Shown here in pieces: positions 1-23,768 of a stretch of DNA of 24,000 nucleotides. The stretch lies in the NCBI GenBank assembly GCA_034189905.1, contig JAXHTY010000022.1, positions 53,795 through 77,794 of the forward strand, read 5' to 3'. Below the pieces are notes generated by a model. It had not been told where the DNA came from and ran no database searches. It saw nothing but the letters and a program-made list of their open reading frames with translations. The translations under genes were made by a program, and so were the position numbers. The stretch is from Thermodesulfobacteriota bacterium. GTDB lineage: Bacteria > Desulfobacterota > Desulfobacteria > Desulfobacterales > Desulfosudaceae. The stretch's first letter is position 1; each line of letters opens with the position of its first letter.

Positions 1-1026
1 CCCCATATACTCATTTACACCGGCGATGAGGTTCCACCCGGAAAACTGTTCGTCTGTCAGGTCCACCATGATAAAAAAGCCGTGGTTCTGATCGACAAAA
101 TCGCCATATCCGTCAAAATTAAACCCGCTATCATCCAGTTCCACCGAATTCTGGTTGGTATTAAAAACAAACTGCCGAAAGCCTGAACCATTTGCGGGAT
201 TCAAATGAAAAGAAGAGATCTGCCAGTACTGATCAAGAAACATGTCCCGCTGCATCTGGAAAATCCGGTCAACATCATCCGCCCCCATGGTTGTCACAAC
301 GTCATCAGGAAGATTTGTCAGCTGTGAGTTCAGCCAGGCCGATGTGACCAGCGGCCGATTGACTTTTCCATATCCGTAAAGCTTGTTGCTGCCGATAATG
401 AGCCGCCGTAATTCCTGATCCCCCTGACCGAAGTTGGAATACTCGGCCCGAAGAACAATGCCGTACAAACGGACTGGATGATCTTCGTCATACCCCATCT
501 GCAGGCCTTCCCAGTTGACATCCCACTGTGTATATTCAGCGCCGTTGCTGGCACCGAAATTTCGATAAAACCCGGACGAAAGATCGGCATGGAGGTTCAC
601 CTTTTTCCCAAAATATCCTGTGCCGTCTTGCGGATTGGTCCGGCTCTGCGTATAAGCAAGGATATTACTCGAATCTGCAGCCAGCATGGGGCCAAGTTCA
701 CCCGCGTCACGTTCGTAATTACCCAGCCGGAGTTCACTGAACTCACCGTAATTTTCTATATAGATATCACTGGAAAAGCGGACAACTGTTACATTTTCAT
801 TCGTGCCATAGTAACCGGGATCACTGATGTCGATGCTGAGAACCTCCCCGCCCTGAACATCCTGAAGCTGCTTGTCCGTCATCACATCCATGCCGGCATA
901 CAGGTTCGTGGCCATAAGTGAACAGAAGGCAATCCCAACCATGGATGTCCACACAATCACATGTGACAACCGTTGTTGAAGCCCTGTTGCCGGGCAACAG
1001 GAAATAACTTTCAAATAATTAATCAT
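1..1026 (-). CDS. Secreted acidic protein, 5' part only (342 codons; the C-terminus lies beyond the left window edge). A Sec signal peptide is followed by a double-glycine-leader-like motif. Third member of the family encoded at 15713 and 16410.
   Basis: Absent from the ORF track because it has no stop inside the window. Plus-strand triplets 1-3, 4-6 ... 1024-1026 contain no TTA/CTA/TCA, so the minus frame is open from ATG (1026-1024) to position 1. There is an in-frame stop upstream at 1047-1045 and a GGAGG at 1035-1031. My translation begins MINYLKVISCCPATGLQQRLSHVIVWTSMVGIAFCSLMATNLYAGMDVMTDKQLQDVQGGEVLSIDISDPGYYGTNENVTVVRFSSDIYIENYG... A hydrophobic signal-like segment precedes MTDKQLQDVQGG (nt 882-847). 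Track ORFs 330-590(-), 478-921(+) and 528-740(+) lie inside it. Confidence 0.75.
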   Translation of the reverse strand, partial: MINYLKVISCCPATGLQQRLSHVIVWTSMVGIAFCSLMATNLYAGMDVMTDKQLQDVQGGEVLSIDISDPGYYGTNENVTVVRFSSDIYIENYGEFSELRLGNYERDAGELGPMLAADSSNILAYTQSRTNPQDGTGYFGKKVNLHADLSSGFYRNFGASNGAEYTQWDVNWEGLQMGYDEDHPVRLYGIVLRAEYSNFGQGDQELRRLIIGSNKLYGYGKVNRPLVTSAWLNSQLTNLPDDVVTTMGADDVDRIFQMQRDMFLDQYWQISSFHLNPANGSGFRQFVFNTNQNSVELDDSGFNFDGYGDFVDQNHGFFIMVDLTDEQFSGWNLIAGVNEYMG

Positions 1027-1109
1027 CAACCCTCCATGCAGGGCCTAACGATGCAAAAACAAGGTACGATAGAGCGAACATCGTTACGCAGTGTGATTCA
1101 ACTTCAATA

Positions 1110-1137
1110 AATATACCATCTGCCCCGACTATGTCAA
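1110..1137 (-). promoter_or_regulatory. Candidate sigma70 promoter for the minus-strand gene
   Basis: The minus strand reads TTGACA (plus 1137-1132), a 16-nt spacer, then TATATT (plus 1115-1110), preceded by a T-rich tract. The predicted transcript start is ~75-80 nt upstream of the ATG at 1026. Confidence 0.45.
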
Positions 1138-1310
1138 CAAAAAAATCAAAACCCTGCGTCACTTCGCAAAGATCCATTATTTCAAGATGCAATATCAATG
1201 CCTTTGGCGACCCTTTTAACAGCCTCCTCAATTAAGCCGTAATACCTTAAATTTTATGATAATATTAATATTCTACCATTTTTGCGCAATCTTGCCTGAT
1301 CAATTGGTCT

Positions 1311-1344
1311 CATTTTTTGTCATTATTTTCGCCATTTTTTGTCA
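1311..1344. repeat. Two direct copies of the 12-mer CATTTTTTGTCA, 22 bp apart, in the divergent intergenic region; candidate regulator-binding sites
   Basis: Exact copies at 1311-1322 and 1333-1344. A third exact copy is at 15199-15210, and a 10/12 copy lies on the opposite strand at 15480-15491. Confidence 0.5.
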
Positions 1345-1462
1345 TGCAGGCTGCAGATTTTTCCTTGACGCAAGACAGGCATTTATTATTTCATTATTCA
1401 GGCCTGCCTCATGACAAATTTTAAGCACCGGCTGCAAACAAAAAGGGATCGCATATTTTATA

Positions 1463-4063
1463 ATGACAGCAAAGCACCCACCGCAGCATCCCATGACCTT
1501 TGTCTTGATATTCATGGTGTTTGTTCTGACCGGCATTCTGATATATGGCAACACCTTCTCCTCTCCCTTTGTAATGGATGATTACGCCAATATCACAGAA
1601 AACCCTGCCATTCGAATGAACCATTTCACAGTGCAGAAGGTGTTAAAAGCATTGCAATTAACCTCCGCATACCGGCCCCTGCCCTGTTTTTCCTTTGCCC
1701 TGAACTATTTCTTCCATGAATACCGTGTTGCAGGATACCATCTGGTTAATATTGCGATTCATATCGTAACCGGTTTTCTTGTTTTTCTGGTTGCCCGACA
1801 AACCATGCGCTTGTGCGGCATGAGCAGCGCGGTGCCCCCTCTGCTGGCCGCCATGCTCTGGTTCGTAAACCCGGTCCACAATCAGTCTGTAACCTATATT
1901 GTTCAGCGGATGACCAGTATGGCCACAATGTTCTACATGTTGAGCCTGTGGATCTATATAAAAGCCCGTTCTGAGGGTTCGGCAACGCAGAAGCGGTTCC
2001 CTGTCCGCACAGTACTCCTTTCCGCCGCAAGTATTATCGCCGGTATCTGCGCCCTCGGATCAAAACAAATTGCCGCCACCCTGCCGGTAATAATCTTCTT
2101 TTATGAATGGTACTTTTTCAGGAATATTAACAGGACCTGGCTGATACACCGGATAAGGTGGCTGGTTGCGCTTGGCGTTGTTGTTTCCGCCATTGCCCTG
2201 ATCTACCTTGGGACAACCCCGTTTGAAAAAATTCAAAGCATGTATGCGCACCAGAATTTTACCATAACCCAGCGATTATTCACAGAACCCCGGGTTATCC
2301 TCTTCTATCTGGTCCTGATGTTTTACCCCCATCCCGACCTGTTGAGTATTGACCATCATTATCCGATTTCTTATGCCCTTCATCATCCACCCACCACGAT
2401 TGCCGCTCTCATTGCCCTTGCCGGACTTATTTCAGCCGCGATAATTTCAGCCAGAAGAGAAAAGCTTATATCATTTGCCATTATCTGGTTTCTGGGCAAT
2501 CTTGTCATCGAGTCGTCTCTCATCGGCCTGGCCCTGATCTTTCAGCACCGTACCTACCTGCCATTTATTTTTCCGGTGATTACAATCAGCTGGCTTGCGT
2601 TTCAATATCTGCCAGCCCGTAAATACGGGATTCTTCTTTTTTGCGTGGTCATCGGCATTTTCAGTTTGTGGACTTTCCAGCGCAATCAGGTCTGGAAAAA
2701 CCGCTTCACTTTCTGGCAAGATACGGTAGCTAAAGCGCCTTACAATGGCCGGGCAAGAAACGATCTTGGACTGGCACTGATGGATAACGGCAAAATGCAA
2801 GCGGCCATTGCTGAATTAAAAAAAGCCGTGGACACGACACCCGATAATGTGCCTGCCCACAACAATCTGGGTTTGGCATTCACCAGACTCGGACAACTGG
2901 ACAAGGCCATTTCATTCTATGAGAAAGCCCTCAGCCTGGGTCCCGGCCATCCACAGGCATACGCCAATCTCGGAGCAACGCTGCTGATGGACAACAGACC
3001 GGAAGAGGCCATTACAGTTCTAGAGAAAGGGATTCAAGTTGCACCGGATGTCGTGGAAATTCATGACAACCTTGCAAATGCCTACATGCAAGCCAATAAG
3101 CCCGTCAAGGCCAAGCAACACGCTGAAAAAGCGCTCGACCTGATGCCGGGCGATCCTATTGCCCTGAATGTTCTGGGATTAATATTTTCCGATAAGGGCG
3201 ATTATACACAAGCAATACAGTATTTTAAAAGGGCATTGAAGAAAAGCCCGCTTAATCTCAAAAGTAATCTTCACATAGCCAGAATATACATGATGCTGAA
3301 TCAGCCGGTAATGGCGACTCCCTATCTTCAGGCCGTCATTCAGATAAATCCTGCAAACGCATTCGCCCATGGCGAACTGGGCGCCGCGTACGCCCTCTCT
3401 GGAAAGCCCGCCATGGCACTTCGACATCTTCAGAAAGCCATTGAATTAAATCCGGGGGATGCGGTCGCACACTTTAATTTAGGCAATGTATTGACGGCAA
3501 ATGGCAACCTGAAAGACGCATTGGCGCACTATAATGCCGCCCTGGCGATCAACCCCGACTATACGGAAGCCCGGCTGACCTTAGGAAAGGTACTGCTCCA
3601 CCACGGCGACATTGAGGAAGCGACACATCAGTTGGACACATTGACCAACACCAGTAAAGACCCCCAATTACTCTACCGGATCGCAACACTTTATAAAAAA
3701 TATGAGATACTGAATAACGCCGCAACACTCTATGAAAAGGCCATCGACATTGAACCGGCTTTCCCCCAGTGCCTCGACAATCTGGGAAGTACCTACGTCC
3801 GGCTGGGACGCCTTGAAGACGCCGTGCAGGCATACCGGCGCCTAAAAAAGCTGATGCCGGATGCGGCCACGGTGCCTTATAATCTTGCCTGCGTTTATGC
3901 CCTGCAGGGACGAAAAGAAGACGCCGTGGCTGCCATCAAAGAGGCGCGGTCCAAGGGATACAACGATCTACGCCGTCTGTTATCCGACCCTGATCTTGCC
4001 ACCCTTCAGGATACGGAATATTATAAAAAATTGAAAAATGCATGGGAGTCGGGCCTGTTATGA
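1463..4063 (+). CDS. Paralog 1 of 6: polytopic membrane protein with a TMTC/DUF1736-like GT-C glycosyltransferase domain fused to roughly a dozen TPR units (866 aa)
   Basis: Track ORF. The N-terminal ~430 aa are hydrophobic and multi-pass. Motifs present: FVMDD after the first TM helix, AYRPLPCFSFALNYFFH, GYHLVNIAIH, NPVHNQSVTYIVQRMTSMATMFY, SKQIAATLPV, YEWYFF, FYPHP, SFAIIWFLGNLVIESS and FQHRTYLPF. As I recall the eukaryotic TMTC family, these parallel FVFDD...SYRPL...LNY...HPIHTE.V...YLPS. The C-terminal half shows 34-aa TPR periodicity (NNLGLAF, AxxxYxxALxxxP) and ends with the cap YNLACVYALQGRKEDAV...DPDLATLQDTEYYKKL. The CDS call is firm; the function is motif-based. Confidence 0.9.
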   Translation: MTAKHPPQHPMTFVLIFMVFVLTGILIYGNTFSSPFVMDDYANITENPAIRMNHFTVQKVLKALQLTSAYRPLPCFSFALNYFFHEYRVAGYHLVNIAIHIVTGFLVFLVARQTMRLCGMSSAVPPLLAAMLWFVNPVHNQSVTYIVQRMTSMATMFYMLSLWIYIKARSEGSATQKRFPVRTVLLSAASIIAGICALGSKQIAATLPVIIFFYEWYFFRNINRTWLIHRIRWLVALGVVVSAIALIYLGTTPFEKIQSMYAHQNFTITQRLFTEPRVILFYLVLMFYPHPDLLSIDHHYPISYALHHPPTTIAALIALAGLISAAIISARREKLISFAIIWFLGNLVIESSLIGLALIFQHRTYLPFIFPVITISWLAFQYLPARKYGILLFCVVIGIFSLWTFQRNQVWKNRFTFWQDTVAKAPYNGRARNDLGLALMDNGKMQAAIAELKKAVDTTPDNVPAHNNLGLAFTRLGQLDKAISFYEKALSLGPGHPQAYANLGATLLMDNRPEEAITVLEKGIQVAPDVVEIHDNLANAYMQANKPVKAKQHAEKALDLMPGDPIALNVLGLIFSDKGDYTQAIQYFKRALKKSPLNLKSNLHIARIYMMLNQPVMATPYLQAVIQINPANAFAHGELGAAYALSGKPAMALRHLQKAIELNPGDAVAHFNLGNVLTANGNLKDALAHYNAALAINPDYTEARLTLGKVLLHHGDIEEATHQLDTLTNTSKDPQLLYRIATLYKKYEILNNAATLYEKAIDIEPAFPQCLDNLGSTYVRLGRLEDAVQAYRRLKKLMPDAATVPYNLACVYALQGRKEDAVAAIKEARSKGYNDLRRLLSDPDLATLQDTEYYKKLKNAWESGLL

Positions 4064-5898
4064 CAAAGCTTCATAACCATGCGGCCGCTTTGATTACCGC
4101 CCTGGCCATCGCAGTTATCGGCATCCTGGTTTATGCCAACACCTTTCATGCGCCTTTTCTATTTGATGATCATATCAACATTATTGATAATCCACGTATT
4201 CGTATGACAGCATTATCCTTTTCCGGCATTGCCACAGCAGCTAAAAACGAATCCCGTCATCGCCCCCTGCCGAATGTTTCATTTGCATTCAATTACTTTT
4301 TTCACCAATACGATACATCTGGCTATCATATCATCAATCTGATCATCCATCTGACAACCGCATTTCTGATCTTTCTGGTCGCCCGGCACACCCTTCAGCA
4401 ACTGAACCAGGATAGTACAATGACAGCTGCACTTGCGGCCGTTCTCTGGCTGACCAACCCGATTCATACCCAGTCGGTCACCTATATTGTCCAACGCATG
4501 ACATCAATGGCCGCCATGTTCTATATGCTCTCCCTGCTCCTTTATATAAAGGCACGAACAAAACAGTTCAAACAAAATGACTTAACCACCGGCACGGCGA
4601 TCCTGCTTGTGGCATCTGTCTTGTGCGGGATATGTGCACTGACATCCAAACAAATTGCCGCCACTCTCCCGGTATTTGTCTTTCTCTATGAATGGTATTT
4701 TTTTCAAAATTTAGATACGGCCTGGCTGAAACGTCAGGTTTGGTTGCCCATTATCCTTGTCATCACGTTGGCCATTATCATAATGGTCTATCTTGGCAAC
4801 AATCCAATCGACAAAATTCTCAGCATGTATGACAGCCAAGGTTTTTCCATAGGCCAGCGACTGCTCAGCCAACCGGGCGTGGTCCTCTACTATCTTTCTC
4901 TTCTGTTCTTTCCCCATCCCGCCCGACTGAACTTTTATTATGACTTTCCCTTATCCACACTGACGGTCCATCCCGAAGCCACGGTTTTGTCCTTCTTTGG
5001 GATAGCCGGACTGCTGATCACTGCTATGATTGCAGCAAGAAAACAACGACTGGTGTCGTTTGCCATCCTATGGTTTCTGGGCACACTTGTGATTGAATCC
5101 TCCTTTATCGGCCTGGCACTGGTTTTCGAACACCGGACTTACCTGCCCTCAATCTTCCTTTTTATTGCCATTGTACCGGTTTTGATGCAGTTATTGAAAC
5201 ACCGGGAACTGGCCATGATGCTCACAGGCACTGCAATAGTGGTTTGCGGCGTCTGGACCTTCCAGCGTAACAGCATATGGCAGGACGCCGTTCATTTCTG
5301 GCAAAACAACGTTGCCAAATCTCCCCAAATAGCATTACCATACAACAACCTGGGACTGGCTTACAAAAAAGCTGGAAAAACGGAATTGGCGCAACAGGCA
5401 TTTGAAACGGCAATTGAAAAAAACCCCCGGCATTACAGAACATATAACAATCTCGGGCTGTTCTTTATCGACCGGGGGAAACCGGAAGCGGCCATCGATT
5501 ATTTTAATAAAGCCCTCAGCATCTATCCGTTCACTGACATCACGCATATTAATATGGGCAATGCTTTTCTTGCTTTGGAAAAATTTGACAAGGCAATTCA
5601 GCATCTTGAAAAAGCTATTGCAATAAACCCATATTCAGCCGAAGCCTTCAACAGCCTTGGCATTGTTTACCTTAAAACCGGTGACCCGGGAAAAGCAGCA
5701 CATTATTTTCAAAAAGCGATTCAGATCAATCCGTATTACGGGAAAGCCTTTAACAACCTTGGCATTGCTTATTTTTACGCCGGCCAGACAGCAAAAGCCG
5801 TCCGGTATTTTAAAAAAGCCGAAACCGTTGCTCCGAATCAGACGAGTGCAAGTGCCAATCTTGATAAACTCCTAAAGATCAAGGATAGCCCGGAATGA
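4060..5898 (+). CDS. Paralog 2 of 6: GT-C (TMTC-like) membrane domain with about 5 TPR units. It is the shortest member and lacks the C-terminal cap module.
   Basis: The track ORF starts at 4042. I prefer the ATG at 4060 for three reasons. It forms an ATGA overlap with the stop of paralog 1 (4061-4063), the same junction recurs at 5895-5898, and it gives an N-terminal length matching the paralogs. Motifs: FLFDD, RHRPLPNVSFAFNYFFH, NPIHTQSVTYIVQRMTSMAAMFY, SKQIAATLPV, YEWYFF, FFPHP, FEHRTYLPS. TPRs run from PYNNLGLAYKKAG to FNNLGIAYFYAG. Confidence 0.88.
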   Translation: MTKLHNHAAALITALAIAVIGILVYANTFHAPFLFDDHINIIDNPRIRMTALSFSGIATAAKNESRHRPLPNVSFAFNYFFHQYDTSGYHIINLIIHLTTAFLIFLVARHTLQQLNQDSTMTAALAAVLWLTNPIHTQSVTYIVQRMTSMAAMFYMLSLLLYIKARTKQFKQNDLTTGTAILLVASVLCGICALTSKQIAATLPVFVFLYEWYFFQNLDTAWLKRQVWLPIILVITLAIIIMVYLGNNPIDKILSMYDSQGFSIGQRLLSQPGVVLYYLSLLFFPHPARLNFYYDFPLSTLTVHPEATVLSFFGIAGLLITAMIAARKQRLVSFAILWFLGTLVIESSFIGLALVFEHRTYLPSIFLFIAIVPVLMQLLKHRELAMMLTGTAIVVCGVWTFQRNSIWQDAVHFWQNNVAKSPQIALPYNNLGLAYKKAGKTELAQQAFETAIEKNPRHYRTYNNLGLFFIDRGKPEAAIDYFNKALSIYPFTDITHINMGNAFLALEKFDKAIQHLEKAIAINPYSAEAFNSLGIVYLKTGDPGKAAHYFQKAIQINPYYGKAFNNLGIAYFYAGQTAKAVRYFKKAETVAPNQTSASANLDKLLKIKDSPE

Positions 5899-15183: not shown

Positions 15184-15195
15184 CTTGGATGCATA

Positions 15196-15329: not shown

Positions 15330-15346
15330 CGGCACCCCCATTGCAT
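15330..15346 (+). promoter_or_regulatory. Sigma54 (RpoN)-type -24/-12 promoter element
   Basis: The sequence cGGCAC-CCCCA-TTGCAt has GG at 15331-15332 and GC at 15343-15344. This is the correct 12-nt GG-to-GC register of the TGGCAC-N5-TTGCW consensus. Only the first T is missing. Confidence 0.5.
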
Positions 15347-15478: not shown

Positions 15479-15507
15479 TTGACAAAAAAACAGGATGTGG
15501 TAAAAAT
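15479..15507 (+). promoter_or_regulatory. Sigma70 promoter candidate upstream of the 15713 gene
   Basis: Consensus -35 TTGACA (15479-15484), a 16-17 nt spacer, then the A/T -10 TAAAAAT (15501-15507). A-tracts and T-tracts lie just upstream. The predicted start near 15513 gives a ~200-nt leader. Confidence 0.5.
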
Positions 15508-15591
15508 GATGGAACATAAACGCTGTTTACAGAGATGAAAGGGGGTGAGGCTTCCAAAATCTCATTTTTGTAATACACATATAGTGTATAT

Positions 15592-15682
15592 TTAGAGAAA
15601 AAGCCAAACCCCGGGCAACCGGGGGGCGGAAAGCCACGAATCCATAAGGACATTCCCTGTGGAGAGTCGGGCCGCCTCTGGG
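15592..15682 (+). promoter_or_regulatory. Structured 5' leader resembling a c-di-GMP-I (GEMM-I) riboswitch aptamer
   Basis: 15603-15635 reads GCCAAACC CCGG GCAA CCGG GGGGCGGAAAGCC. That is a CAAACC block, a 6-bp GC stem (15609-15614 / 15619-15624) capped by the GNRA tetraloop GCAA, then a CGGAAAGCC block. It has the same length and order as the Vc2 aptamer segment as I remember it (GGCAAACC AUUC GAAA GAGU GGGACGCAAAGCC). A second hairpin follows: CCACG/UGUGG (15634-15638 / 15658-15662) enclosing AAUCC-AUAA-GGAcAUU. An outer pairing is possible between UUUAGAG (15591-15597) and CUCUGGG (15676-15682). Not verified with a covariance model. Confidence 0.45.
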
Positions 15683-15712: not shown

Positions 15713-16237
15713 ATGAAAAAATTATTAGTAGCGTTAGTCGTAGGTGCATTAATGGTTCTGCCGATGTCTGCAATGGCTATGGATTCTATTTCAGATGCTG
15801 ATCTCGGCGGCATCACCGGTCAGGCCGGTGTTACCATCGCCTTTGGCGGCAATCAGACCACAGAAGTGACTTTTGACGCCGTATCCTGGGGCGATCCCGA
15901 TGGCATGGGTGGTGCTAACCAGACTGCCGGTTGGGTCATTTTTGACGGCACAATTGGCATCTCCGTAATCATCGCCGACGGTGAGATGCTGACCATTGAC
16001 GTTGCAACAGCTAATGGTGCTGCATACAGCGTTGGCAATGTTACTATTGCTGACGGCACGACCTTTGTCGCCATTGGCCTGCCCAGCCAGACCATCAATG
16101 TGGACACACCGTCTACGCTGGCCATTGGCCTTGGCACCAGCGCGGGTAGCATTGCCGGCACAATCGGTCTGCTGAACCTGGAAAACCTGAGTGTTTCCCC
16201 GGGTACGCCTGACGCGCTCTACATTTACGCACATTAA
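15713..16237 (+). CDS. Small secreted, extremely acidic Gly/Thr/Ala/Ile-rich protein (174 aa) with a Sec signal peptide followed by a double-glycine-leader-like motif; candidate major structural subunit
   Basis: Track ORF. A strong SD, GGAGGGAG (15699-15706), precedes the ATG. Signal peptide: MKKLLVALVVGALMVLPMSAMA | MDS. Motif ISDADLGGITGQ at nt 15788-15823. After the signal peptide there is no Lys, Arg or Cys, against 12 Asp and 3 Glu. Four N-x-S/T sequons are present (NQT, NQT, NVT, NLS). It shares VSWGDPDGMG and a C-terminal LYIYAH strand with the 16410 product (VYWGDADGFG, IYVYES). Confidence 0.9.
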   Translation: MKKLLVALVVGALMVLPMSAMAMDSISDADLGGITGQAGVTIAFGGNQTTEVTFDAVSWGDPDGMGGANQTAGWVIFDGTIGISVIIADGEMLTIDVATANGAAYSVGNVTIADGTTFVAIGLPSQTINVDTPSTLAIGLGTSAGSIAGTIGLLNLENLSVSPGTPDALYIYAH

Positions 16238-16280
16238 TTCAAGTTCTTAATGAATATTATGCGTAATTGCACAAAAATGT

Positions 16281-16318
16281 CCCCTGGAGTGGAATCTCCC
16301 CATTCCAGGGGATTTTTT
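16281..16318 (+). terminator. Rho-independent terminator after the 174-aa gene
   Basis: The stem CCCCTGGA (16281-16288) pairs with TCCAGGGG (16304-16311). It is followed by A and T6 (16312-16318). Confidence 0.8.
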
Positions 16319-16321
16319 CCC

Positions 16322-16350
16322 TTTACAGACCAGCATTTTTGTTGTATAGT
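16322..16350 (+). promoter_or_regulatory. Sigma70 promoter for the 16410 gene
   Basis: TTTACA (16322-16327), a 17-nt spacer, then TATAGT (16345-16350). It sits directly after the terminator and ~55 nt upstream of the ATG at 16410. Confidence 0.6.
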
Positions 16351-16409: not shown

Positions 16410-17408
16410 ATGAACACCAAGAAATGTTTTTCATCCAGCCTGCCTGCTCTTTTTCTCATTATTGTCGGATTATCAGTTCTATCTTCTGTTGTTCCCACCG
16501 CCCATGCTGTGACACTGCTTTCAGACAAAACCATTGCCCAGATTTACGGCGGTCAGCAGGTTATTATTGAAGTTGAAAACGGGTCAGCCGCTTTTTTTAC
16601 CATTGATGATGTTTACTGGGGTGATGCAGACGGCTTTGGCAATGCCACCAGCCCCGGCTATATCGATATTCAGGTCCCGTATAAAAATTTTCAATATGAC
16701 GCATTTCGATATCAGTTCAACACCAAGGAAGACGCCGATGCCTTCATTGAAGCTCTGGATGACCTGACCTATATGGATATAGAGGTCGAGGATACGGAAT
16801 TTTTCTACAAAGTCCCCAATGCCCAGGATATCGGCATAAACGATACCACTGGCAGAGAGATTGATTATGTAATTGTTACCACAGACAGATCGGTCCCTAG
16901 CAATATTATACAAAACCACAGAGGAACTGTCATCAGCCAGGAAATCCAATTTACCATTTCTTTCCCCGACGAAGAAGACCCATACCGGAAAACGTACGAA
17001 ACCGTCACCTATGACGCGGCCAATGATGAGTTTGTCTTCGATTCAGCAGACTACGGTCAGTTCATCACTGAAGTTCACAATACGGGCAATCAGCCCATTC
17101 GGGACAGTGAAGGCAACATAATTGTGCCGACAGACACAACTTACTTACAAGCTCGCACTGCCACGCTCCAAGTGGATAGCCCCATGATCGCCTTTTCCAT
17201 TGCTCTGATTCCGGAGGGTGATGTGCCCATTCCCGATAGATTCATGCAGAACCCCACCAGCACGCCGAGTCACTACCCTGATTTTGACGCTGCCAATGAC
17301 CCAGGAAGGCAACTGGGATACTTCGGCATTTCTGACCTCCAGGTGCGAATCGGCGGCGGAGAACCCATCTATGTCTACGAATCAGATATTGTCTATCCTT
17401 TTGAATAA
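16410..17408 (+). CDS. Secreted acidic protein (332 aa from the ATG at 16410) with a Sec signal peptide followed by a double-glycine-leader-like motif; larger paralog of the 15713 product
   Basis: The track ORF starts at 16368. I prefer 16410 (MNTKKCFSSSLPALFLIIVGLSVLSSVVPTAHA | VTL) because it gives a canonical n-h-c signal peptide and has GGAGA ~10 nt upstream. Motif LSDKTIAQIYGG at nt 16518-16553. D+E clearly outnumber K+R. The WGDADGFG block and the C-terminal PIYVYES strand are shared with the 174-aa protein. Confidence 0.85.
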   Translation: MNTKKCFSSSLPALFLIIVGLSVLSSVVPTAHAVTLLSDKTIAQIYGGQQVIIEVENGSAAFFTIDDVYWGDADGFGNATSPGYIDIQVPYKNFQYDAFRYQFNTKEDADAFIEALDDLTYMDIEVEDTEFFYKVPNAQDIGINDTTGREIDYVIVTTDRSVPSNIIQNHRGTVISQEIQFTISFPDEEDPYRKTYETVTYDAANDEFVFDSADYGQFITEVHNTGNQPIRDSEGNIIVPTDTTYLQARTATLQVDSPMIAFSIALIPEGDVPIPDRFMQNPTSTPSHYPDFDAANDPGRQLGYFGISDLQVRIGGGEPIYVYESDIVYPFE

Positions 17409-17749: not shown

Positions 17750-17760
17750 ATTTGGTTAAT

Positions 17761-17777
17761 AGTAAACAATGTTTACT
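17761..17777. promoter_or_regulatory. Perfect 8-bp inverted repeat AGTAAACA-a-TGTTTACT; operator-like site just downstream of the candidate -10
   Basis: AGTAAACA at 17761-17768, A at 17769, TGTTTACT at 17770-17777. It lies 12 nt after the -10 hexamer and 41 nt before the ATG at 17818. Confidence 0.35.
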
Positions 17778-17817
17778 GTTTGATATTGGGGGATCTAAAG
17801 GCAGGAGTCTTCATAAA

Positions 17818-18576
17818 ATGCATATATTGGTTGCTTTTGTTATCGCTGTTGCGCTCATCTCCGGATTTAAGCCTATCAAGGAAGTACCGGACAACGAAAT
17901 TCGAATCGCCGTCAATACCGATGGGGGGATTGTCCCCAACCTTCCGCCTGAAGTTGAAATTCGTCATGAAATAGGACCGGCGTCGGAAATCAACTTTAAA
18001 CATATTGTCACGCAGCAATTTGATTATAGCTGCGGCTCCGCAGCCCTGGCCACCATACTGCGATACCAGCTTGGGGAAAAATTCACTGAGACCCAGGTTA
18101 TTGCCGGCCTTTTCCGGTATGGCGACAAGGAACAGGTTGAAAAGAAGCGCGCGTTTTCACTGCTTGACATGAAGAAGTTCGTGGGCGTTCTGGGCTACAA
18201 CGGGGTGGGCTACCGGGCCGATATAGAAGACCTCAAAGATCTGAACATGCCATGCATTGTCCCCATCGAAGTGTTTGGTTACCGACATTTTACCGTTTTC
18301 AAGGACGTTTATAGAGGGCACGTCTTTCTTGCCGACCCGTATCGGGGGAATTCCAGTTATACCATCGATCAGTTCGAAAAAATATGGCACCAGAATGTTA
18401 TTTTTGTCGTGTATCCCAGAGGGGAAGAGCAGCTTTCACTGCTGGAATTATCCCATCGTGACCTTCGATTTATTGACGAGGCCATGGAATACGACATCCT
18501 CTTTAATGGTCAGCCGCCTTTGGACAGCCTGCCGCCGGAACCGGACACAGGCGGAAGACAGCGCTTCAGGTATTAA
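17818..18576 (+). CDS. Stand-alone C39-family (bacteriocin-processing type) cysteine peptidase with an N-terminal signal/anchor helix and no ABC-transporter domain (252 aa from 17818)
   Basis: The track ORF starts at 17752. I prefer the ATG at 17818 (AGGAG at 17803-17807, 10-nt spacer), which gives MHILVAFVIAVALISGF as an N-terminal hydrophobic helix. C39 signature blocks: QQFDYSCGSAALATIL (oxyanion Gln; Cys codon at 18031-18033), FSLLDMKKFVGVLGY, MPCIVPI, GYRHFTVF (His), VFLADPYRGN (Asp), FEKIWHQNVIFV. Confidence 0.85.
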   Translation: MHILVAFVIAVALISGFKPIKEVPDNEIRIAVNTDGGIVPNLPPEVEIRHEIGPASEINFKHIVTQQFDYSCGSAALATILRYQLGEKFTETQVIAGLFRYGDKEQVEKKRAFSLLDMKKFVGVLGYNGVGYRADIEDLKDLNMPCIVPIEVFGYRHFTVFKDVYRGHVFLADPYRGNSSYTIDQFEKIWHQNVIFVVYPRGEEQLSLLELSHRDLRFIDEAMEYDILFNGQPPLDSLPPEPDTGGRQRFRY

Positions 18577-18621: not shown

Positions 18622-20289
18622 TTGAATAGAAAAAATAAAACGATGACCGTATGCATGGCATTAACGCTTCTTCTCTGCCAACTTGCATTCGCAAACCAGC
18701 CCTCTCAAACAGGAGAAAGGCAGTTGATGACGGATATTTCTGTCGATGAACTGGCAACCATCATCGGCAGAGGATTTATTGCCAGCCTGAGCCCCGAGGA
18801 AATTGAAGAGATCAACGCCCGCGGCATCACCGCCCCCGATATTCTGGATATGAAAACTAAAGATCTCGCCCGTATCAGTGCCCGCGGTGTCACATATGTC
18901 TTTGATACATCCAAAGTCACCGATGAGGACCTTCAGGATATCGCCGGTCGCGGAACAGTCCAGGAAATCGGTCGCTCGCCTTACTCTGTACAGGTTGGAG
19001 TCTTTAAGGTAAAGGAGAATGCGCTTTCCCTGCTTAAGGAGCTGGAGGGGAAAGGGTATGAACCTTATATTTTCCAGACCATTGGCGATGCCGATGAAAA
19101 ACTGTTTGCAGTCCGGCTTGGCGACTATGAAGATGTAAAAGACGCCTACGCCGCGGTAACGCACTTCAAATCAAAAGAAAAAAAACCGGCTGTGGTCACC
19201 TATATCAACTCCCTGAAAACCGTTCAAAAAGCAGATCTTATGCAGGAGGAGGCCACCACGAGACTTTCTGATGAATTGTCCGCTGCGGACTTCGAAGATG
19301 AAAACCTGAACTCCCTTTACAGGGAATTAACCGCATTACGCAAAGAGGTGGATCAACTCAAGGCTGAAGCCGAAGCCCGTGAAAAGCTTCGCATGACAGA
19401 AGCCGAGGAGGAAAAAGAAGAGGAAGAAATCCTCTCTGCCGCCGGCAGGGAATACACCATGGCACAAAAAGGGACCCTGACCTTTGATTATTCATTTGGA
19501 TATACGTTTAACACTTATGAACAGGTCAGTGTGGCCTCCACAGCGACATCCGCAACCTCTTACCAGGTTGACCATGTCAACGGCCATACCCTGAGAAACA
19601 GCGTTGCCACGGGATACTCGCTGTTTGACAACCTCAAGGTAACCGCCTCTGTTCCGTTTGTGTACAAATATCAAAAACTGGGCCGTATCGGTTCCAAAGA
19701 TGTCAGTGACATCGGCGACATCTCGCTGGGCGCGAACTGGCAGCCAATCAAAGCCGGCGGAAACTTCCCCGCAACCATCCTTACAACCAATATCAACATA
19801 CCTACCGGGCGAAGTCCTTATGAAATCAATCCCGACGTTGACATTGCTACCGGTTCGGGGGTTTATTCCGCCACTGTGGGTTTTACCGCCAGCAAAACCA
19901 TTGATCCCATCGTGGCGTATGGCGGTATGGGATATACCCACTCCCTTGAAGAATCCGGCCTGAACCAGCAATTGTCTTCCGGCAACGTTCTTGACAGTGT
20001 TGAACCCAAGGGTGTTATCAGTACCAGCCTGGGCGTAGGCTATGCCATGTCCTACAAGGCCTCCATCTATACTAGCTTCTCTTATTCCTACCTGTTTGGC
20101 GCAACCTATAAATATGCGAATGGCAGTGATGCCTCCACCGGAAATTCAGCAACCGCCAGCCTAGTGGTGGGAACGGGCTGGAAAATATCGCCTGAGCGGA
20201 CTGTCAGCATAAACCTGGGCCTGGGGTTGACCAATGAGGCATCCGACTTTGCCTTCTCCTTCAGGCTCCCCTTTGATTTTGAGATGTAA
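18622..20289 (+). CDS. Outer-membrane protein with five parts: signal peptide, four motif repeats, a SPOR peptidoglycan-binding domain, an acidic coiled-coil linker, and a C-terminal beta-barrel of the MetA/phenol-degradation transporter type
   Basis: Track ORF with a TTG start at 18622, preceded by GGGAGG (18609-18614, 7-nt spacer). Signal peptide: MTVCMALTLLLCQLAFA | NQ. SPOR-like block: YSVQVGVFKVKENALSLLKELEGKGYEPYIFQ...LFAVRLGDYEDVKDAYAAV. Linker: LRKEVDQLKAEAEAREKLRMTEAEEEKEEEE. The last ~270 aa show alternating beta-strand patterns with the DIGDISLG, NIPTG and ATGSG motifs I associate with that barrel family, and end FSFRLPFDFEM. Confidence 0.85.
   Translation: MNRKNKTMTVCMALTLLLCQLAFANQPSQTGERQLMTDISVDELATIIGRGFIASLSPEEIEEINARGITAPDILDMKTKDLARISARGVTYVFDTSKVTDEDLQDIAGRGTVQEIGRSPYSVQVGVFKVKENALSLLKELEGKGYEPYIFQTIGDADEKLFAVRLGDYEDVKDAYAAVTHFKSKEKKPAVVTYINSLKTVQKADLMQEEATTRLSDELSAADFEDENLNSLYRELTALRKEVDQLKAEAEAREKLRMTEAEEEKEEEEILSAAGREYTMAQKGTLTFDYSFGYTFNTYEQVSVASTATSATSYQVDHVNGHTLRNSVATGYSLFDNLKVTASVPFVYKYQKLGRIGSKDVSDIGDISLGANWQPIKAGGNFPATILTTNINIPTGRSPYEINPDVDIATGSGVYSATVGFTASKTIDPIVAYGGMGYTHSLEESGLNQQLSSGNVLDSVEPKGVISTSLGVGYAMSYKASIYTSFSYSYLFGATYKYANGSDASTGNSATASLVVGTGWKISPERTVSINLGLGLTNEASDFAFSFRLPFDFEM
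18727..18957 (+). repeat. Four tandem protein-level repeats of an acidic-Leu/Ile-x-x-Ile-x-(Gly/Ala)-Arg-Gly motif in the periplasmic N-terminus of the SPOR barrel protein
   Basis: The four repeats are SVDELATIIGRG, SPEEIEEINARG, KTKDLARISARG and TDEDLQDIAGRG (aa 36-112). The R-G pairs are spaced 17, 21 and 22 residues apart. Compare TDKQLQDVQGG, SDKTIAQIYGG and SDADLGGITGQ in the three secreted proteins. Confidence 0.7.
18979..19206 (+). other. SPOR-like peptidoglycan-binding domain within the 18622 gene
   Basis: aa 120-195 follow the beta-alpha-beta-beta pattern YxVQVGxF...A...L...G....v......FAVRLGxY....A typical of SPOR domains. Confidence 0.6.
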
Positions 20290-20330: not shown

Positions 20331-22070
20331 ATGCGATTGAAAACGCAGACAAGAACAGCACCAATTCTTTTCATAACGGCAGTCGTGTTCCTTCTTTGCA
20401 TTAATGAGAACCGTCTGTGCCATGCCGCCTTTTTTGAAAACATTGCCGTCCATGCCAAGGCCATTTCACTGGCTAATTCATGTGTTGCCTATCCGCCCGG
20501 CCATATGGCAATCCATTACAATCCTGCCGGTCTTTCCAACCTGCATGCCGGTAAACAGCTCAGCCTGGGCCTGCTCACAGCGGATCTTTCCATTGAATCG
20601 AGCTTTAATGCAGATCCGGATTTTGACGGCTGGCTGGACACATTCAGTAATCAGGATGACCCCCTGGACGGCACGAACAGCAGCGTTGAAGGCTGGCATC
20701 TATATATGCCGATACTGGGCGAACAGGATACCGACATCATTGGTGTGGACACGCCCGCCGGGTTTCTTCCGGCTGCGCCGTTCCCGTTAGGATTGTCATA
20801 CCGGGAGCCAGGATCCCGATGGACATTCGGATTTGGTGCCTATGCCCCGACGGTTGGCGGTTATTACCGGTCGGATGCGGATCCCGGCCGCTATAACGGG
20901 CGGGCAGTATCAATGCAACAAATAACATACGCTGCGCCGTCTGTCAGTTACCAGCTCACAGACACACTATCGCTCGGCCTGACCGTCAGCTTAAGCCAGG
21001 GCGCCACTCAGATGGATCTGGATATGCGCATGCCCAACGACCTGATGGCTCTGACCAAAACACTTGGCGATGCAACAGAAGGATTGACCATTCCGATTGT
21101 CTCTCAGTTAACCCTTCCCGCCCCGTGGTTTGGCGGCGGCATCGGGCCGTATGAGGATTTTGCCAACCTGAACATCAAAAGCCGAGACGACTATTGTCCC
21201 GGATATAATATCGGCCTTTTATGGGAACCCAAAAACTGGTTTTCTTTTGGTGCCAATTATCAAAGCAAGGTCCGTATGGAACAGCAGGGTACATATAAAT
21301 TCAGTTATAATGAGAACTGGCAGCGTATGGTAAACTGGTTTGGCAGTTCCGTGCTGTTATTGCCCATTTCAGTCATGCTTGACCTTCCCTATAATGCAAC
21401 CCCCTATCAGGCCGGTAACGTTTATATGGATGGATTTGATGCGCCCCAGCGTGTCCAGATGGGGGTTATGCTCAGGCCCTTCAAGCGACTGCGACTGATG
21501 TGTGATGCCCACTGGATCGACTATTCTGAAACAAAAAAATGGACCATTCAATTCGATCAGAACATCCAGGTACTTCAACTGGCAAAACTGGTAGGACACG
21601 CAGACGGTTCCAACAGACTGACCTTGACCCGGGATATGGAAGATGAAATTCATATGAGTTACGGCGCAGAACTCCAGCTACTGGAGTGGCTCTTTTTGCG
21701 ATGCGGCTATGAAGACAGAAAAACATCTGTCAGCCGGCAATATTTCGATGTTATTGCACCCGTCCCGGATCTGGATTTTTACGGTGCCGGCTTAGGCATA
21801 AAACTTAAGAGCGGGGTTGAAATTGACCTGTCTGTGGGCTATCTTGAATCCGAAAGATGGTATGTACCCAATAACACCAGCGACAATCTGAATTCAACCG
21901 ATTTCACAGACGCGGTATACAATCCGTATGGCGGCCTTGATGTGTCCGGTGAAATGGATATTACAGTCGTTGCGGCCAATGTGAGTATGCCGTTTAAATA
22001 TATTTATCGCATCAGCAATATTCTCAAGGATTCATTGGAAAAAACAAAAGAACTCATTCCTTTCCATTAA
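20331..22070 (+). CDS. FadL/TodX/OmpP1-family outer-membrane channel homolog, enlarged (579 aa)
   Basis: Track ORF. AGGAG lies 5 nt upstream of the ATG. A signal peptide ends in CHA | AFFE. The N-terminal hatch-like block AKAISLANSCVAYPPGHMAIHYNPAGLSNL matches the family hallmark (G.A..A...d.....NPAGL). The remainder is rich in amphipathic beta strands with aromatic girdle residues. Confidence 0.8.
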   Translation: MRLKTQTRTAPILFITAVVFLLCINENRLCHAAFFENIAVHAKAISLANSCVAYPPGHMAIHYNPAGLSNLHAGKQLSLGLLTADLSIESSFNADPDFDGWLDTFSNQDDPLDGTNSSVEGWHLYMPILGEQDTDIIGVDTPAGFLPAAPFPLGLSYREPGSRWTFGFGAYAPTVGGYYRSDADPGRYNGRAVSMQQITYAAPSVSYQLTDTLSLGLTVSLSQGATQMDLDMRMPNDLMALTKTLGDATEGLTIPIVSQLTLPAPWFGGGIGPYEDFANLNIKSRDDYCPGYNIGLLWEPKNWFSFGANYQSKVRMEQQGTYKFSYNENWQRMVNWFGSSVLLLPISVMLDLPYNATPYQAGNVYMDGFDAPQRVQMGVMLRPFKRLRLMCDAHWIDYSETKKWTIQFDQNIQVLQLAKLVGHADGSNRLTLTRDMEDEIHMSYGAELQLLEWLFLRCGYEDRKTSVSRQYFDVIAPVPDLDFYGAGLGIKLKSGVEIDLSVGYLESERWYVPNNTSDNLNSTDFTDAVYNPYGGLDVSGEMDITVVAANVSMPFKYIYRISNILKDSLEKTKELIPFH

Positions 22071-22094
22071 ACTCCCAAAGTAACGGTCGAAAAA

Positions 22095-23768
22095 ATGCAA
22101 AAAAAACTGCATGCATGCATGTATTTCTGTCTTATTGCCTTCTTTGCCAATATCACCCCAACGGCCTTTGCAACTACCCTTTCAGAAAATTCTGTAAAAT
22201 TGGGAACCGCGTCAAAAAGTGAAAAAATCTACGCTCAGTCCCTCAAAATCAGCGATGACAAGCAGCACATTGCATATGTATCAAAAAATAAAACAGGCAT
22301 GCGGGTCTGGAAAGATGGTACTCCGGGACCAGTTTATCAGGGCATTTCCATTGAAACGCCTGTGTTTGCACCGGGAAGTGATAAGGTCTGTTACATTGCG
22401 ATTGAAGCAAATCAAATGAGAGCGGTTATTGACGGGGAAAAAGGACCTGTTTTTCAGGCAATCGACAGCCTGACCTTTTCTTATGACGGGACAAGGACAG
22501 GATACCGCTACATTAATAATGCAGAAAAAATGCAAGTCATGATTGACAACAAGCCCGGTCCGGAGTTTGCCAAAATTGCGGATGAACCAGGAATTGTATT
22601 CTCACCGGATGGAAAGCATTTTGCCTATGTGGGCATCAGCAGCACCGGGTCTCATATTCTTGTCAAAAACCATAAAAAACAACAAGCATTTGACGATATC
22701 CAGACCGTCTTGTTCTCTCCTGACGCCAGACATCTTGCCATCGTCGCCAAGCAGGCAGATATGTGGCATGTGATTTTCGACGGGAAAACCGGCAATCCGT
22801 ATAAAAAAATTACGCAACTCTCTTTTTCGCCGGATTCAAATCACATCGTCTATACCGCTCAAAAGCAGAAGCAGTTTGTTGTTGTAAAAGACCATAATGA
22901 ACTGCCATCCGGCCAATCCGCCTTGTCTCCGCAATATTCCCCTGACGGTAAAACACTAGTCTATGCTATGGGAAAAAACAATAAATGGCACCTGGTCGTT
23001 AATGGCAAAGCGGGGCCGCCGGTAGAAAAACCGGGAAAAATCGGTTTCTCTGAAAAAGGGAGTCATTTTGCATACTCGGCATTAATGGACGATCAGTGGA
23101 CGGTTTTTTTTGATAACAAAAAAGGGCCGCTTTTCGACAATATCACCTATCTGGATTTCTCACCATATGACCCTACACTTGTCTATATTGCCCACAAGAA
23201 AGACCACCAGTGCATTGTCAAAAACCAGATCCCTGATGTCTTTTATGATTCGGTCGGCTTGCCAGTGTTTTCTGGAAAACCAAACGGCCATTTCGCTTAT
23301 GTTGCACTGGACACGCAGCAGCACAAAACATTCATAATTGAAAATATCGCCGGCAGTACTAAAAAACACGAACCATTTGATATGATCGGTATTCTAATGG
23401 CCGATAAAAAAGGCGATCCCTTTTATGCCGCCCAGCGTCCGTTTTTCTCTGCAGATGGCCGGCATATGGCCTATCCTGTCATCCACAACAAGAAAAGTCT
23501 CATGGTGGTAGATAACAAACCCCAGAAACGGTTTGATGTGGTTTCCAGGCCATATTTTTCTCCTGATGGCACTCATGTCGCGTATATGGCAAAGACCAAT
23601 GACAGATGGTTTGTAGTGGTGGACGGTAAAACAGGCAAAAAAAGCTTTGACAGTTTTCTCAAGGAGGGAGGTATCGTTTTTGATGGACCGGACCGTTTTT
23701 CCGTGCTTGCCTTAAACCTGCCGGGGCCTGATTTCTACCGGCTTACGGTGAACATCAAATCGAATTAA
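22095..23768 (+). CDS. Periplasmic repeat protein (557 aa) built from about a dozen 37-38-aa FSPDGxHxAY-type repeats; likely beta-propeller or beta-solenoid
   Basis: Track ORF. Signal peptide: MQKKLHACMYFCLIAFFANITPTAFA | TT. Repeat anchors: FSPDGKHFAYVG, FSPDARHLAIVA, FSPDSNHIVYTA, YSPDGKTLVYAM, FSEKGSHFAYSA, FSPYDPTLVYIA, FSGKPNGHFAYVA, FSADGRHMAYPV, FSPDGTHVAYMA, plus degenerate copies. Each is followed by W-x-V-(V/I)-x-D-G-K-x-G-P-x-F-D. Confidence 0.85.
   Translation: MQKKLHACMYFCLIAFFANITPTAFATTLSENSVKLGTASKSEKIYAQSLKISDDKQHIAYVSKNKTGMRVWKDGTPGPVYQGISIETPVFAPGSDKVCYIAIEANQMRAVIDGEKGPVFQAIDSLTFSYDGTRTGYRYINNAEKMQVMIDNKPGPEFAKIADEPGIVFSPDGKHFAYVGISSTGSHILVKNHKKQQAFDDIQTVLFSPDARHLAIVAKQADMWHVIFDGKTGNPYKKITQLSFSPDSNHIVYTAQKQKQFVVVKDHNELPSGQSALSPQYSPDGKTLVYAMGKNNKWHLVVNGKAGPPVEKPGKIGFSEKGSHFAYSALMDDQWTVFFDNKKGPLFDNITYLDFSPYDPTLVYIAHKKDHQCIVKNQIPDVFYDSVGLPVFSGKPNGHFAYVALDTQQHKTFIIENIAGSTKKHEPFDMIGILMADKKGDPFYAAQRPFFSADGRHMAYPVIHNKKSLMVVDNKPQKRFDVVSRPYFSPDGTHVAYMAKTNDRWFVVVDGKTGKKSFDSFLKEGGIVFDGPDRFSVLALNLPGPDFYRLTVNIKSN

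Follow-up and report, generated by a model that had tools for sequence, protein, structure and literature searches.

A probable Fil/Fap-type surface-fibre locus with a leader-like motif and an adjoining GT-C/TPR array in a relative of Desulfosudis oleivorans

Introduction

Do acidic secreted proteins, a periplasmic-looking C39 peptidase, two outer-membrane barrels and an array of membrane proteins with TPR domains together make a new envelope system, or are they a variant of a known one? The question is raised by 24,000 nucleotides of a Thermodesulfobacteriota metagenome-assembled genome from a relative of Desulfosudis oleivorans (GenBank assembly GCA_034189905.1, contig JAXHTY010000022.1, positions 53,795 to 77,794 of the forward strand). 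The whole of this stretch is referred to here as the window. A preliminary description, made from the letters alone, had proposed an undescribed system in which no known secretion or fibre pathway was visible. This was wrong. The FilA to FilD, FapD and FapF models and the solved FapF structure are matched by window proteins, the genes are FilA to FilD homologs in order and the logic of such a system is known from Fap (Rouse et al., 2017; PMC5557850). The accompanying sketch of a processed, possibly glycosylated surface or matrix polymer, built on Sec export, C39 processing and barrels, fits our results, but as an account of a new system it does not stand.

We consider it probable that the window is one surface-fibre locus. 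The plus strand carries every large gene except one. Related loci (numbered L001 onwards) were collected by a pattern scan over one genome per species, which gave 80 loci; these were annotated with the window proteins.

The Fil-type gene set

Homology and gene order show the segment from 15.3 to 23.8 kb to be a predicted, distant Fil-type system; systems of this type contain a FadL-like barrel and are sister to the Fap amyloid exporter of Pseudomonas. Pfam gives generic names only (DUF6160, Peptidase_C39, SPOR, Toluene_X, PD40 and TPR). The NCBIfam models are more specific: those for FilA to FilD, FapD and FapF are matched with E values of 3e-9 to 3e-98, and the matches of the FilB, FilC and FilD homologs each span most of the model. 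The Fil gene order A-B-C-D is kept (starts at 15713, 17752, 18622 and 20331), with one extra subunit gene inserted.

The following points weigh against this assignment. The four Fil scores all lie far under the NCBI curated cut-offs (36.5 against 220 bits for FilA, 188.9 against 475 for FilB, 189 against 630 for FilC and 329.6 against 970 for FilD). No FilE or FilF equivalent was found by NCBIfam among the 346-residue acidic protein, the propeller-like protein and the third acidic protein. The structural model of the subunit, described below, has no neighbour in the PDB. The cut-offs belong to Acinetobacter-level `exception' models, and the Pseudomonas homologs also score below them. Since the Pseudomonas scores are intermediate between those of the window proteins and the Acinetobacter models, the Fil-type systems form a continuum. 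Literature searches on DUF6160, Fil pili and FilA to FilE with C39 or FapF returned no mechanistic account of the Fil machinery.

The C39 peptidase matches Peptidase_C39 in Pfam (E 7e-18) and FilB (1.2e-55) and FapD (2.9e-37) in NCBIfam. Its catalytic set, Gln66, Cys72, His157 and Asp173, is invariant in 21 homologs and it has a single N-terminal hydrophobic segment, so that the proposal of an intact, periplasmic-looking enzyme is upheld. It is a stand-alone protein, its profile matches the double-glycine protease structures 6MPZ and 4RY2, and there is no ABC transporter gene in the window.

The SPOR-containing protein matches SPOR (E 5e-12), FilC (1.7e-55, over residues 208-553) and FapF (8.9e-23). 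Its barrel region, residues 331-553, matches the solved FapF structures 5O65, 5O67 and 5O68 with an E value of 1.5e-16. Four copies of the leader-like motif discussed below (18736-18954) are followed by the SPOR domain (about 18973-19200), a charged heptad-like stretch (about 19309-19446) and the barrel (about 19612-20280). The barrel with SPOR domain and four motif copies had been recognized in the preliminary description, as had the second, FadL-like barrel, which matches Toluene_X (E 1e-43), FilD (2.8e-98), the TodX structure 6Z38 (6e-4) and, weakly, PorV/PorQ. The periplasmic repeat protein named there is likewise present. It has at least eight units of the form FSPDGxHxAY with a 37-residue period, matches PD40/TolB-like models and is beta-propeller-like.

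The FilA-like protein matches DUF6160 in Pfam (E 2.7e-9) and pilus_FilA in NCBIfam (E 3.4e-9), and the latter alignment spans the signal peptide and the leader motif. A Sec signal peptide is present. The protein is acidic, with 15 aspartates and glutamates against two lysines and arginines, carries the motif SWGDPDG and ends in LYIYAH. In family alignments the FilA-type proteins share SWGDxDG and a C-terminus that reads [YW]AH; 79 of 109 homologs stop at the histidine, and the others mostly carry one residue more (Asn, Asp or Pro). The conserved C-terminus may serve as a signal for export or assembly. The fuller consensus, from two family alignments, is [LVI]x[IV][YWFS]-A-H (window 16220-16234).

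An AlphaFold2 model of the mature FilA-like protein is all-beta with long hairpins (mean predicted local distance difference test score, pLDDT, of 76.7). The best structural match in the PDB had an E value of 0.18. Because the model has no structural neighbour, the predicted role of the protein as a fibre subunit rests on FilA homology and context. A chaperone-usher-type pilin fold was considered and found no support from the same comparison. Concerning the gene itself, the public annotation (P0315, 152 residues) starts at MDSISD and so omits the Sec signal peptide (window 15713-15778); the 174-residue start, with MKKLLVALVVGALMVLPMSAMA, is the one conserved among homologs. The longer form has four N-x-S/T sequons: NQT, NQT, NVT and NLS at residues 46-48, 68-70, 108-110 and 157-159. 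A profile search placed the FilA-like/DUF6160 family at about 1,000 representative clusters. Many members (P0350-P0354 and others) are 300-770 residues long and consist of two to six tandem FilA-like modules.

Two further acidic secreted proteins accompany the subunit. The 346-residue protein has 55 acidic against 18 basic residues, a YWGDADG motif resembling that of FilA and no Pfam or NCBIfam family match; homologs stand at the same locus position in L002-L010. The third protein, encoded on the minus strand where the window begins, has 43 acidic against 20 basic residues and a weak DUF6160 match across its leader-like motif. Homologs, all with the same kind of motif, are encoded directly upstream of the C39 gene in L045, L027, L063, L017 and L036 (E 5e-13 to 1e-7). 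Since these homologs adjoin the peptidase gene in five other loci, the third protein is a component of the Fil-like system.

Co-inheritance of the components

The preliminary description had expected the peptidase, the two barrels, the repeat protein and the TPR-containing array to be inherited together. This holds very widely for the triad of C39 peptidase, FapF-like and FadL-like barrels. Where enough downstream sequence was available, the triad is present in 57 of 65 loci, comprising 39 of 47 from Desulfobacterota and all 18 from gamma-proteobacteria. The eight exceptions are Smithella-type loci with subunit genes and the peptidase only. The expectation fails for the remainder. Where the flank is long enough, 19 of 36 Fil-like loci from Desulfobacterota encode the propeller, and no gamma-proteobacterial locus does. 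The SPOR domain and the four-motif block are restricted to the window's own clade, L001-L010, and the array adjoins in a minority of lineages. With the triad widespread, and with the propeller, the SPOR and four-motif block and the array each confined to a part of the loci, the `quartet plus array' is a lineage-specific elaboration and not one conserved unit.

The Smithella/Syntrophaceae `satellite' loci (L025, L042, L043, L048, L055, L056, L064 and L066) each encode a C39 peptidase, a larger protein with the motif and between two and four small FilA-like proteins, with no adjoining FapF-like or FadL-like gene. In five of them a second TMTC-like subfamily (with INFDD, FLVDD or a similar DD motif) is encoded upstream on the opposite strand.

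The GT-C/TPR array

The left part of the window is occupied by six tandem, partly overlapping paralogous genes, each encoding an N-terminal membrane domain of about 410 residues and C-terminal TPRs. Mean identity is 55% between the N-domains and 35% between the TPR parts, which range from 203 to 451 residues. These are the six TMTC-like proteins with variable TPRs of the preliminary description, and the motifs of the TMTC family, taken from the list in PMC7801869, are indeed present: DD in the first loop, RP, K[EQ]xxxT, EW and E-H-R-x-Y-LPS. Invariant in the six paralogs are Asp39/Asp40, Arg71, Lys201...Thr206, Glu215-Trp216 and His362-Arg363-x-Tyr365; across 44 homologs Asp40/Asp41, Arg72, Lys201, Glu215-Trp216 and His362-Arg363 do not vary (paralog 4 numbering). 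Pooled hydropathy of the paralogs is consistent with about 11 transmembrane segments. From these segments and TMTC topology we infer that the TPR domain is extracytoplasmic.

Several results weigh against the family assignment. The window paralogs all stay below the Pfam GT-C gathering scores and none hits DUF1736. The N-domain profile, built from either six or 19 sequences, found no match among PDB sequences, and hhalign gave a probability of 0.26 against Escherichia coli ArnT, a value that tells little, since the template was a single sequence and the profile is shallow. On the other side, homologs P0208 and P0240, 44-48% identical over the N-domain, pass PMT_2 (33.7 against 26.1 bits) and PMT (27.9 against 22.7), and several homologs bear the JGI name `protein O-mannosyl-transferase'. 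Paralog 2 has a weak DUF6056 match (19.6 bits, cut-off 27). An AlphaFold2 N-domain model from the six paralogs is poor (pLDDT 53); its PDB matches above a probability of 0.5 are all GT-C proteins (STT3, DPY19, AftD and PimE), at weak E values of 0.05-0.5. On this indirect basis we accept the six paralogs as TMTC-like GT-C proteins, with sugar transfer as the predicted activity.

Does the array work with the Fil genes? GT-C arrays lie directly upstream of a FilA-like gene, on the same strand, in L002, L003, L005, L006, L019, L021, L028, L087 and L091, the last being cultured D. oleivorans Hxd3 (CP000859.1, 2.91-2.93 Mb) with the same array layout. In L027 the array is on the opposite strand. 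Adjacency thus holds in two or three Desulfobacterota lineages. The Fil and GT-C/TPR genes may nevertheless be separate neighbours, with the GT-C proteins serving general envelope or protein glycosylation, and this we hold to be possible, although it is not the reading that we favour. Among Desulfobacterota loci with at least 6 kb of upstream sequence, 24 of 36 have no GT-C gene nearby; most Fil-like loci lack one within 10 kb and this is true of all the gamma-proteobacterial, Pseudomonas-type loci. The GT-C/TPR family is very large, with thousands of members annotated simply as `TPR proteins', and some of them occur in unrelated contexts. One paralog, P0173, has GT4 and sulfotransferase genes as neighbours and is far removed from the Fil locus in its 2.7-Mb genome. 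The arrays of GCA_040753795.1 are inside a glycan-type cluster (GT2, methyltransferase, acetyltransferase and radical SAM genes), and the window array has neither a sigma54 box nor a riboswitch ahead of it. In addition, the loci that have thi4/thiC downstream are orthologous to one another, which reduces them to one event.

Against separation, same-strand adjacency persists in L019, L021 and L028, where the FilA subtype is different and C39 identity has fallen to about 50%. In the window, genes for motif proteins flank the array at both sides, and a different TMTC-like subfamily is found near the Smithella-type DUF6160/C39 loci. Taken together, we regard functional coupling of the array to the Fil genes as about evenly balanced, and a coupling to glycosylation as plausible.

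The cluster in GCA_040753795.1 (L089 1-20185, contig JBFMDX010000013.1) covers 20 kb on the same strand upstream of the Fil-like genes and contains three GT2, a DUF2304, two radical SAM, two LPG_synthase_TM, a methyltransferase, a hexapeptide acyltransferase and five GT-C/TPR genes. GT2 enzymes such as those beside these arrays could supply polyprenol-phosphate sugar donors, a point in favour of coupling.

The leader motif

The three acidic secreted proteins with a GG-type motif, reported in the preliminary description, were all found again. The proteins are beta-rich and have Sec signal peptides, and in each the motif stands directly behind the signal-peptidase site. It is ISDADLGGITGQ in the FilA-like protein (15788-15823), LSDKTIAQIYGG in the 346-residue protein (16518-16553) and MTDKQLQDVQGG in the third protein (847-882), where the signal peptide is followed by GMDVMTDKQLQDVQGG. 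From 125 unique DUF6160 N-termini we derived the consensus [IMVL]-[ST]-[DE]-x-[DE]-[LM]-x-x-[VIL]-T-[GA]-[QE]-x-G-V-[TS]-I. In the corresponding logo position -12 is Ile, Met, Val or Leu (100%), -11 Ser or Thr (75%), -8 Asp or Glu (80%), -7 Leu or Met, -4 Val, Ile or Leu, -2 Gly or Ala (100%) and +2 Gly. The double-glycine leader pattern LSxxELxxIxGG is thereby matched at -12, -11, -8, -7, -4 and -2, that is, at six of its seven positions. The 346-residue and third proteins have Gly at -1; the motif ends in [GA]-G in the former family and in G-[QGTE]-G in the latter. The copies in the FilC-like protein have the form ..I.[GA]RG and a fixed spacing.

We propose that the C39 enzyme recognizes this motif and probably cuts it. 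The proposal makes the motif a new candidate target of a Fap/Fil-type periplasmic C39 peptidase. The FapD target was left open by Rouse et al., who noted no canonical C39 recognition sequence in Fap proteins; the catalytic Cys of FapD is required for FapC secretion (PMC5557850). In such systems the C39 target has been open since 2017, when the peptidase was shown to be essential, and every putative substrate here carries a leader-like motif.

Two features of the motif weigh against cleavage. Position -1 in the FilA-type motifs is Gln or Glu without exception (100%), not Gly, Ala or Ser, which is unusual for a C39 substrate. Secondly, the residues past the motif (Gly +2, Val +3, Thr/Ser +4 and Ile +5) are as conserved as the motif itself and make up the FilA-like model's first beta strand. 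For these reasons a role in targeting or assembly is a serious rival: the motif could, as a strand or helix for example, dock on the FilC or FilD barrel or on the next subunit, with the C39 enzyme acting mainly on the transporter. Rouse et al. proposed that FapD cleaves the FapF linker (PMC5557850), and the four copies on the FilC-like protein would suit such a role. We nevertheless think this rather unlikely. The six-position double-glycine match recurs in three unrelated protein families, two of them with Gly at -1, and most FilC-like proteins have no motif copies, yet the peptidase is kept.

A bolder version of leader recognition can be envisaged, in which the leader is a portable tag that is first read by the TPRs, the GT-C enzymes O-glycosylate the unfolded subunits and the C39 enzyme then removes the tag, with release to the FapF-like/FadL-like outer-membrane exporter. 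We judge this improbable. If true, a glycosylated surface polymer would be made by a leader logic like that of ribosomally synthesized and post-translationally modified peptides, the very large bacterial TMTC-like family would have its first named clients and FapD/FilB a substrate rule.

Regulation

The preliminary description had also seen signs of cyclic di-GMP (c-di-GMP) and sigma54 control, and both are borne out. A riboswitch aptamer of the c-di-GMP-I class lies ahead of the FilA-like gene; at 60.3 bits (E 3.7e-12) it passes the gathering score of 59, and it ends 33 nucleotides before the FilA-like ATG. The ligand could be c-di-GMP or a related cyclic dinucleotide. The best-scoring model varies by locus: the GGC variant scores best in the window, the canonical model in L027 and L008 at the equivalent position. 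A covariance model built from the window, L027 and L008 aptamers gave 25 hits in 16 sources, namely the window and 15 other loci. Each of the 25 is followed, 14-261 nucleotides downstream, by a gene whose product has a signal peptide and a leader of this kind and is in most cases DUF6160-like. Tandem aptamers in two to four copies occur in L017, L024 and L062. This recurrent riboswitch control of DUF6160 genes is, with the leader motif, a new element of the present analysis.

The distribution is uneven. No riboswitch was found in the Pseudomonas loci, nor, with the covariance model, in the closest relatives L002, L005, L006, L087 and L091, the last of which was also searched with Rfam at E values up to 10. 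The closest relatives have well-conserved leaders of about 340 nucleotides (L091 9647-10003, L002 1991-2344 and L006 1323-1684). These leaders contain a GC-rich hairpin region that aligns with the window riboswitch and matches no Rfam family; it could be a decayed or variant aptamer.

Further upstream the sigma54-type element CGGCACCCCCATTGCA agrees with the consensus at ten of 11 positions, with GG at -24, GC at -12 and the correct spacing. Seven of 12 related leaders contain a box of at least 9/11, where the background rate is 0.06 per kb per strand, and equivalent elements lie 300-620 nucleotides upstream of the first FilA-like gene in L002, L005, L006, L087, L091 and L027. A candidate element on the minus strand, AGGCATTGATATTGCA, lies ahead of the gene for the third acidic protein; nine of its 11 positions fit the consensus, with GG and GC in register. 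No sigma54 enhancer-binding protein is encoded in the window; one may be encoded elsewhere in the genome. Between the box and the riboswitch there is a leader block in which the palindrome ATAAACGCTGTTTAC/GTAAACAnTGTTTAC and the purine-rich box GAAAGGGGGTGAGG (15516-15550) lie downstream of a sigma70-like promoter. The block is conserved across six related FilA leaders (alignment columns 198-235, approximately, for palindrome and box); palindrome and box may be an operator for a protein or an element of RNA structure.

Downstream of the FilA-like gene a strong intrinsic terminator, with a 14-base-pair stem including eight GC pairs and a T run, fits a major-subunit gene. A sigma70-like promoter, TTTACA-17-TATAGT, follows behind it before the next gene (16279-16350). 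The terminator and the promoter after it suggest high subunit expression with lower read-through into the machinery genes.

Shared intergenic 12-mers had been put forward as a link between the two halves of the window. One does occur in both, CATTTTTTGTCA, with two direct copies ahead of the first GT-C gene and a third at 15199-15210 within the palindrome TGACATTTTTTGTCA. Shuffled sequences share 0.36 12-mers on average against the one seen, which is weakly above chance, and CATTTTTTGTCA is absent from every related locus. Being single, of low complexity and unconserved, it was dropped as a regulatory link.

Table 1. Features of the window and riboswitch aptamers at related loci
Feature	Position	Strand	Basis or remark
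Third acidic secreted protein, partial	1-1026	-	Six-frame translation; runs off the left window edge
Candidate sigma54-type -24/-12 element AGGCATTGATATTGCA	1188-1203	-	About 160 nucleotides upstream of the minus-strand gene
12-mer CATTTTTTGTCA, two direct copies	1311-1322, 1333-1344	+	Upstream of the first GT-C gene
GT-C/TPR paralog 1, 866 residues	1463-4063	+	TPR families, conserved N-domain motifs
GT-C/TPR paralog 2, 618 residues (P0122; 612 residues from NCBI start)	4042-5898	+	
GT-C/TPR paralog 3, 761 residues	5895-8180	+	
GT-C/TPR paralog 4, 793 residues	8230-10611	+	
GT-C/TPR paralog 5, 767 residues	10688-12991	+	
GT-C/TPR paralog 6, 729 residues (P0121)	12994-15183	+	
Sigma54-type promoter element CGGCACCCCCATTGCA	15330-15345	+	10/11 positions
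Conserved leader block	15479-15550	+	Sigma70-like TTGACA-17-AAAAAT, palindrome, GAAAGGGGGTGAGG
c-di-GMP-I-class (GEMM-I clan) riboswitch aptamer	15594-15680	+	Best Rfam model RF03167 (GGC variant)
FilA-like major subunit, DUF6160, 174 residues	15713-16237	+	Pfam and NCBIfam
Intrinsic terminator after FilA-like gene	16279-16323	+	14-base-pair stem, eight GC pairs, T run
Second acidic secreted protein, 346 residues	16368-17408	+	Likely start 16410
C39 peptidase, FilB/FapD-like	17752-18576	+	Annotated start 17818, 252 residues
FilC/FapF-like outer-membrane transporter, SPOR-containing, 555 residues	18622-20289	+	
FilD-like FadL/OmpP1-family barrel	20331-22070	+	Toluene_X, FilD
Beta-propeller-like repeat protein, secreted, 557 residues	22095-23768	+	PD40/TolB-like models
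Riboswitch, L008	59-153		
Riboswitch, L027	7174-7265		
Riboswitches, L017	7198-8255, 15689-16017		
Riboswitches, L062	6821-6915, 15448-15851		
Riboswitches, L024	10213-10460		
Riboswitches, L013, L012, L036, L020, L037, L040, L041, L011, L065 and L023			

The nature of the assembly and a proposed mechanism

The similarity to Fap invites the idea that the product is a functional amyloid, whose subunits form cross-beta structure in a biofilm matrix. The FapD-like and FapF-like proteins, the all-beta subunit model with its long hairpins and a cyclic-dinucleotide control that would fit a matrix component are compatible with this. We consider it very unlikely, since no FapA, FapB, FapC or FapE match was found by Pfam or NCBIfam among the window proteins, the window subunit sequences contain no Q/N-rich imperfect repeats of the Fap amyloid type, the Fil models score much above the Fap models and the FadL-like FilD falls outside the six described Fap components. 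That the window holds a categorically new envelope system, unrelated to known secretion and fibre pathways, could appeal to the generic names given by Pfam alone and to the lack of a mechanistic Fil paper in our full-text searches, but is refuted by the FilA to FilD and FapD/FapF homology, the gene order and the match to solved FapF, and we give it almost no credence.

The explanation that best accommodates the observations as a whole, and that we regard as fairly likely, is a Fil/Fap-type fibre locus that is leader-guided and possibly coupled to glycosylation. The subunits would be exported by Sec and lose their signal peptides, after which the C39 enzyme would dock on the leader motif and probably cut it. 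Once the leader has been processed, the unfolded subunits would be licensed to cross the FapF-like trimeric barrel and would polymerize extracellularly. As accessory factors we envisage the FadL/PorV-like barrel and the propeller in the periplasm. In the window's clade the SPOR domain would tether the transporter to peptidoglycan, and the four motifs of the FilC-like protein may be docking or cleavage sites for the same peptidase, much as has been proposed for the FapF linker. With less assurance, we suggest that the six TMTC-like enzymes might O-glycosylate periplasmic clients from polyprenol-phosphate sugars. The fibre subunits would then be the likeliest clients and the TPR domains would provide client choice.

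Our interest in the locus is furthered by what it offers for experiment. Concrete new candidate clients for bacterial TMTC-like GT-C/TPR proteins are at hand, in a layout also found in the cultured strain Hxd3. Through the riboswitches ahead of DUF6160 genes, a fibre family of sulfate reducers and syntrophs is linked to second-messenger signalling; aggregation and biofilms of these organisms matter for corrosion and syntrophy.

Comparison with known systems

The closest likeness is to the Fil system of Acinetobacter, a `putative pilus system' in NCBIfam (NF050077-NF050080), in which the order of subunit, C39 peptidase, FapF-like and FadL-like barrels is the same and all four models are matched. 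In PMC11784438, which cites Hori 2011, FilA is reported to be a pilus subunit on cells of Acinetobacter sp. Tol 5. The window differs in its additional components, which are two more motif proteins, the propeller, the SPOR domain and four-motif block on FilC, the GT-C/TPR array, the riboswitch and the sigma54 promoter. It differs also in scores far under the cut-offs, in having no FilE or FilF and in its host, an anaerobic member of the Thermodesulfobacteriota.

Rouse et al. (2017; PMC5557850) showed that Fap proteins are exported by Sec, that the C39 peptidase FapD is located in the periplasm and that FapF is a trimeric barrel carrying a coiled coil on its periplasmic side. The window system likewise has Sec export first, a periplasmic C39 enzyme and a FapF-type barrel behind a coiled-coil-like periplasmic segment. 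In contrast to Fap it lacks FapA, FapB, FapC and FapE and the Q/N-rich repeats, and it has an added FadL-like barrel and a clear leader-like motif. That motif invites comparison with the bacteriocin ABC exporters (PCAT1, 4RY2; LahT, 6MPZ), with which the window shares the peptidase fold, the catalytic residues and six positions of the leader pattern. In the exporters the peptidase is fused to the ABC transporter, whereas here it stands alone in the periplasm, and the motif lies behind a Sec signal peptide, not at the extreme N-terminus, with Gln or Glu at -1 in the main subunit family.

The array resembles the eukaryotic TMTC1-4 O-mannosyltransferases (Eisenhaber et al., 2021; PMC7801869) in having a multi-pass N-domain followed by TPRs, in the motifs DD, RP, K-E/Q-xxx-T, E/D-W and E-x-R-x-Y-LPS, and in the existence of several paralogs with divergent TPRs. 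Unlike these, the window proteins are bacterial, form a tandem array of six and have no DUF1736 Pfam hit. Finally, the riboswitch reaches the Rfam gathering score for its class and, like other c-di-GMP-I riboswitches, occupies the 5' leader of a gene for a surface structure. Compared with that class at large, the type described here is set apart by its recurrent DUF6160/FilA-like target and, often, by two to four aptamers in tandem.

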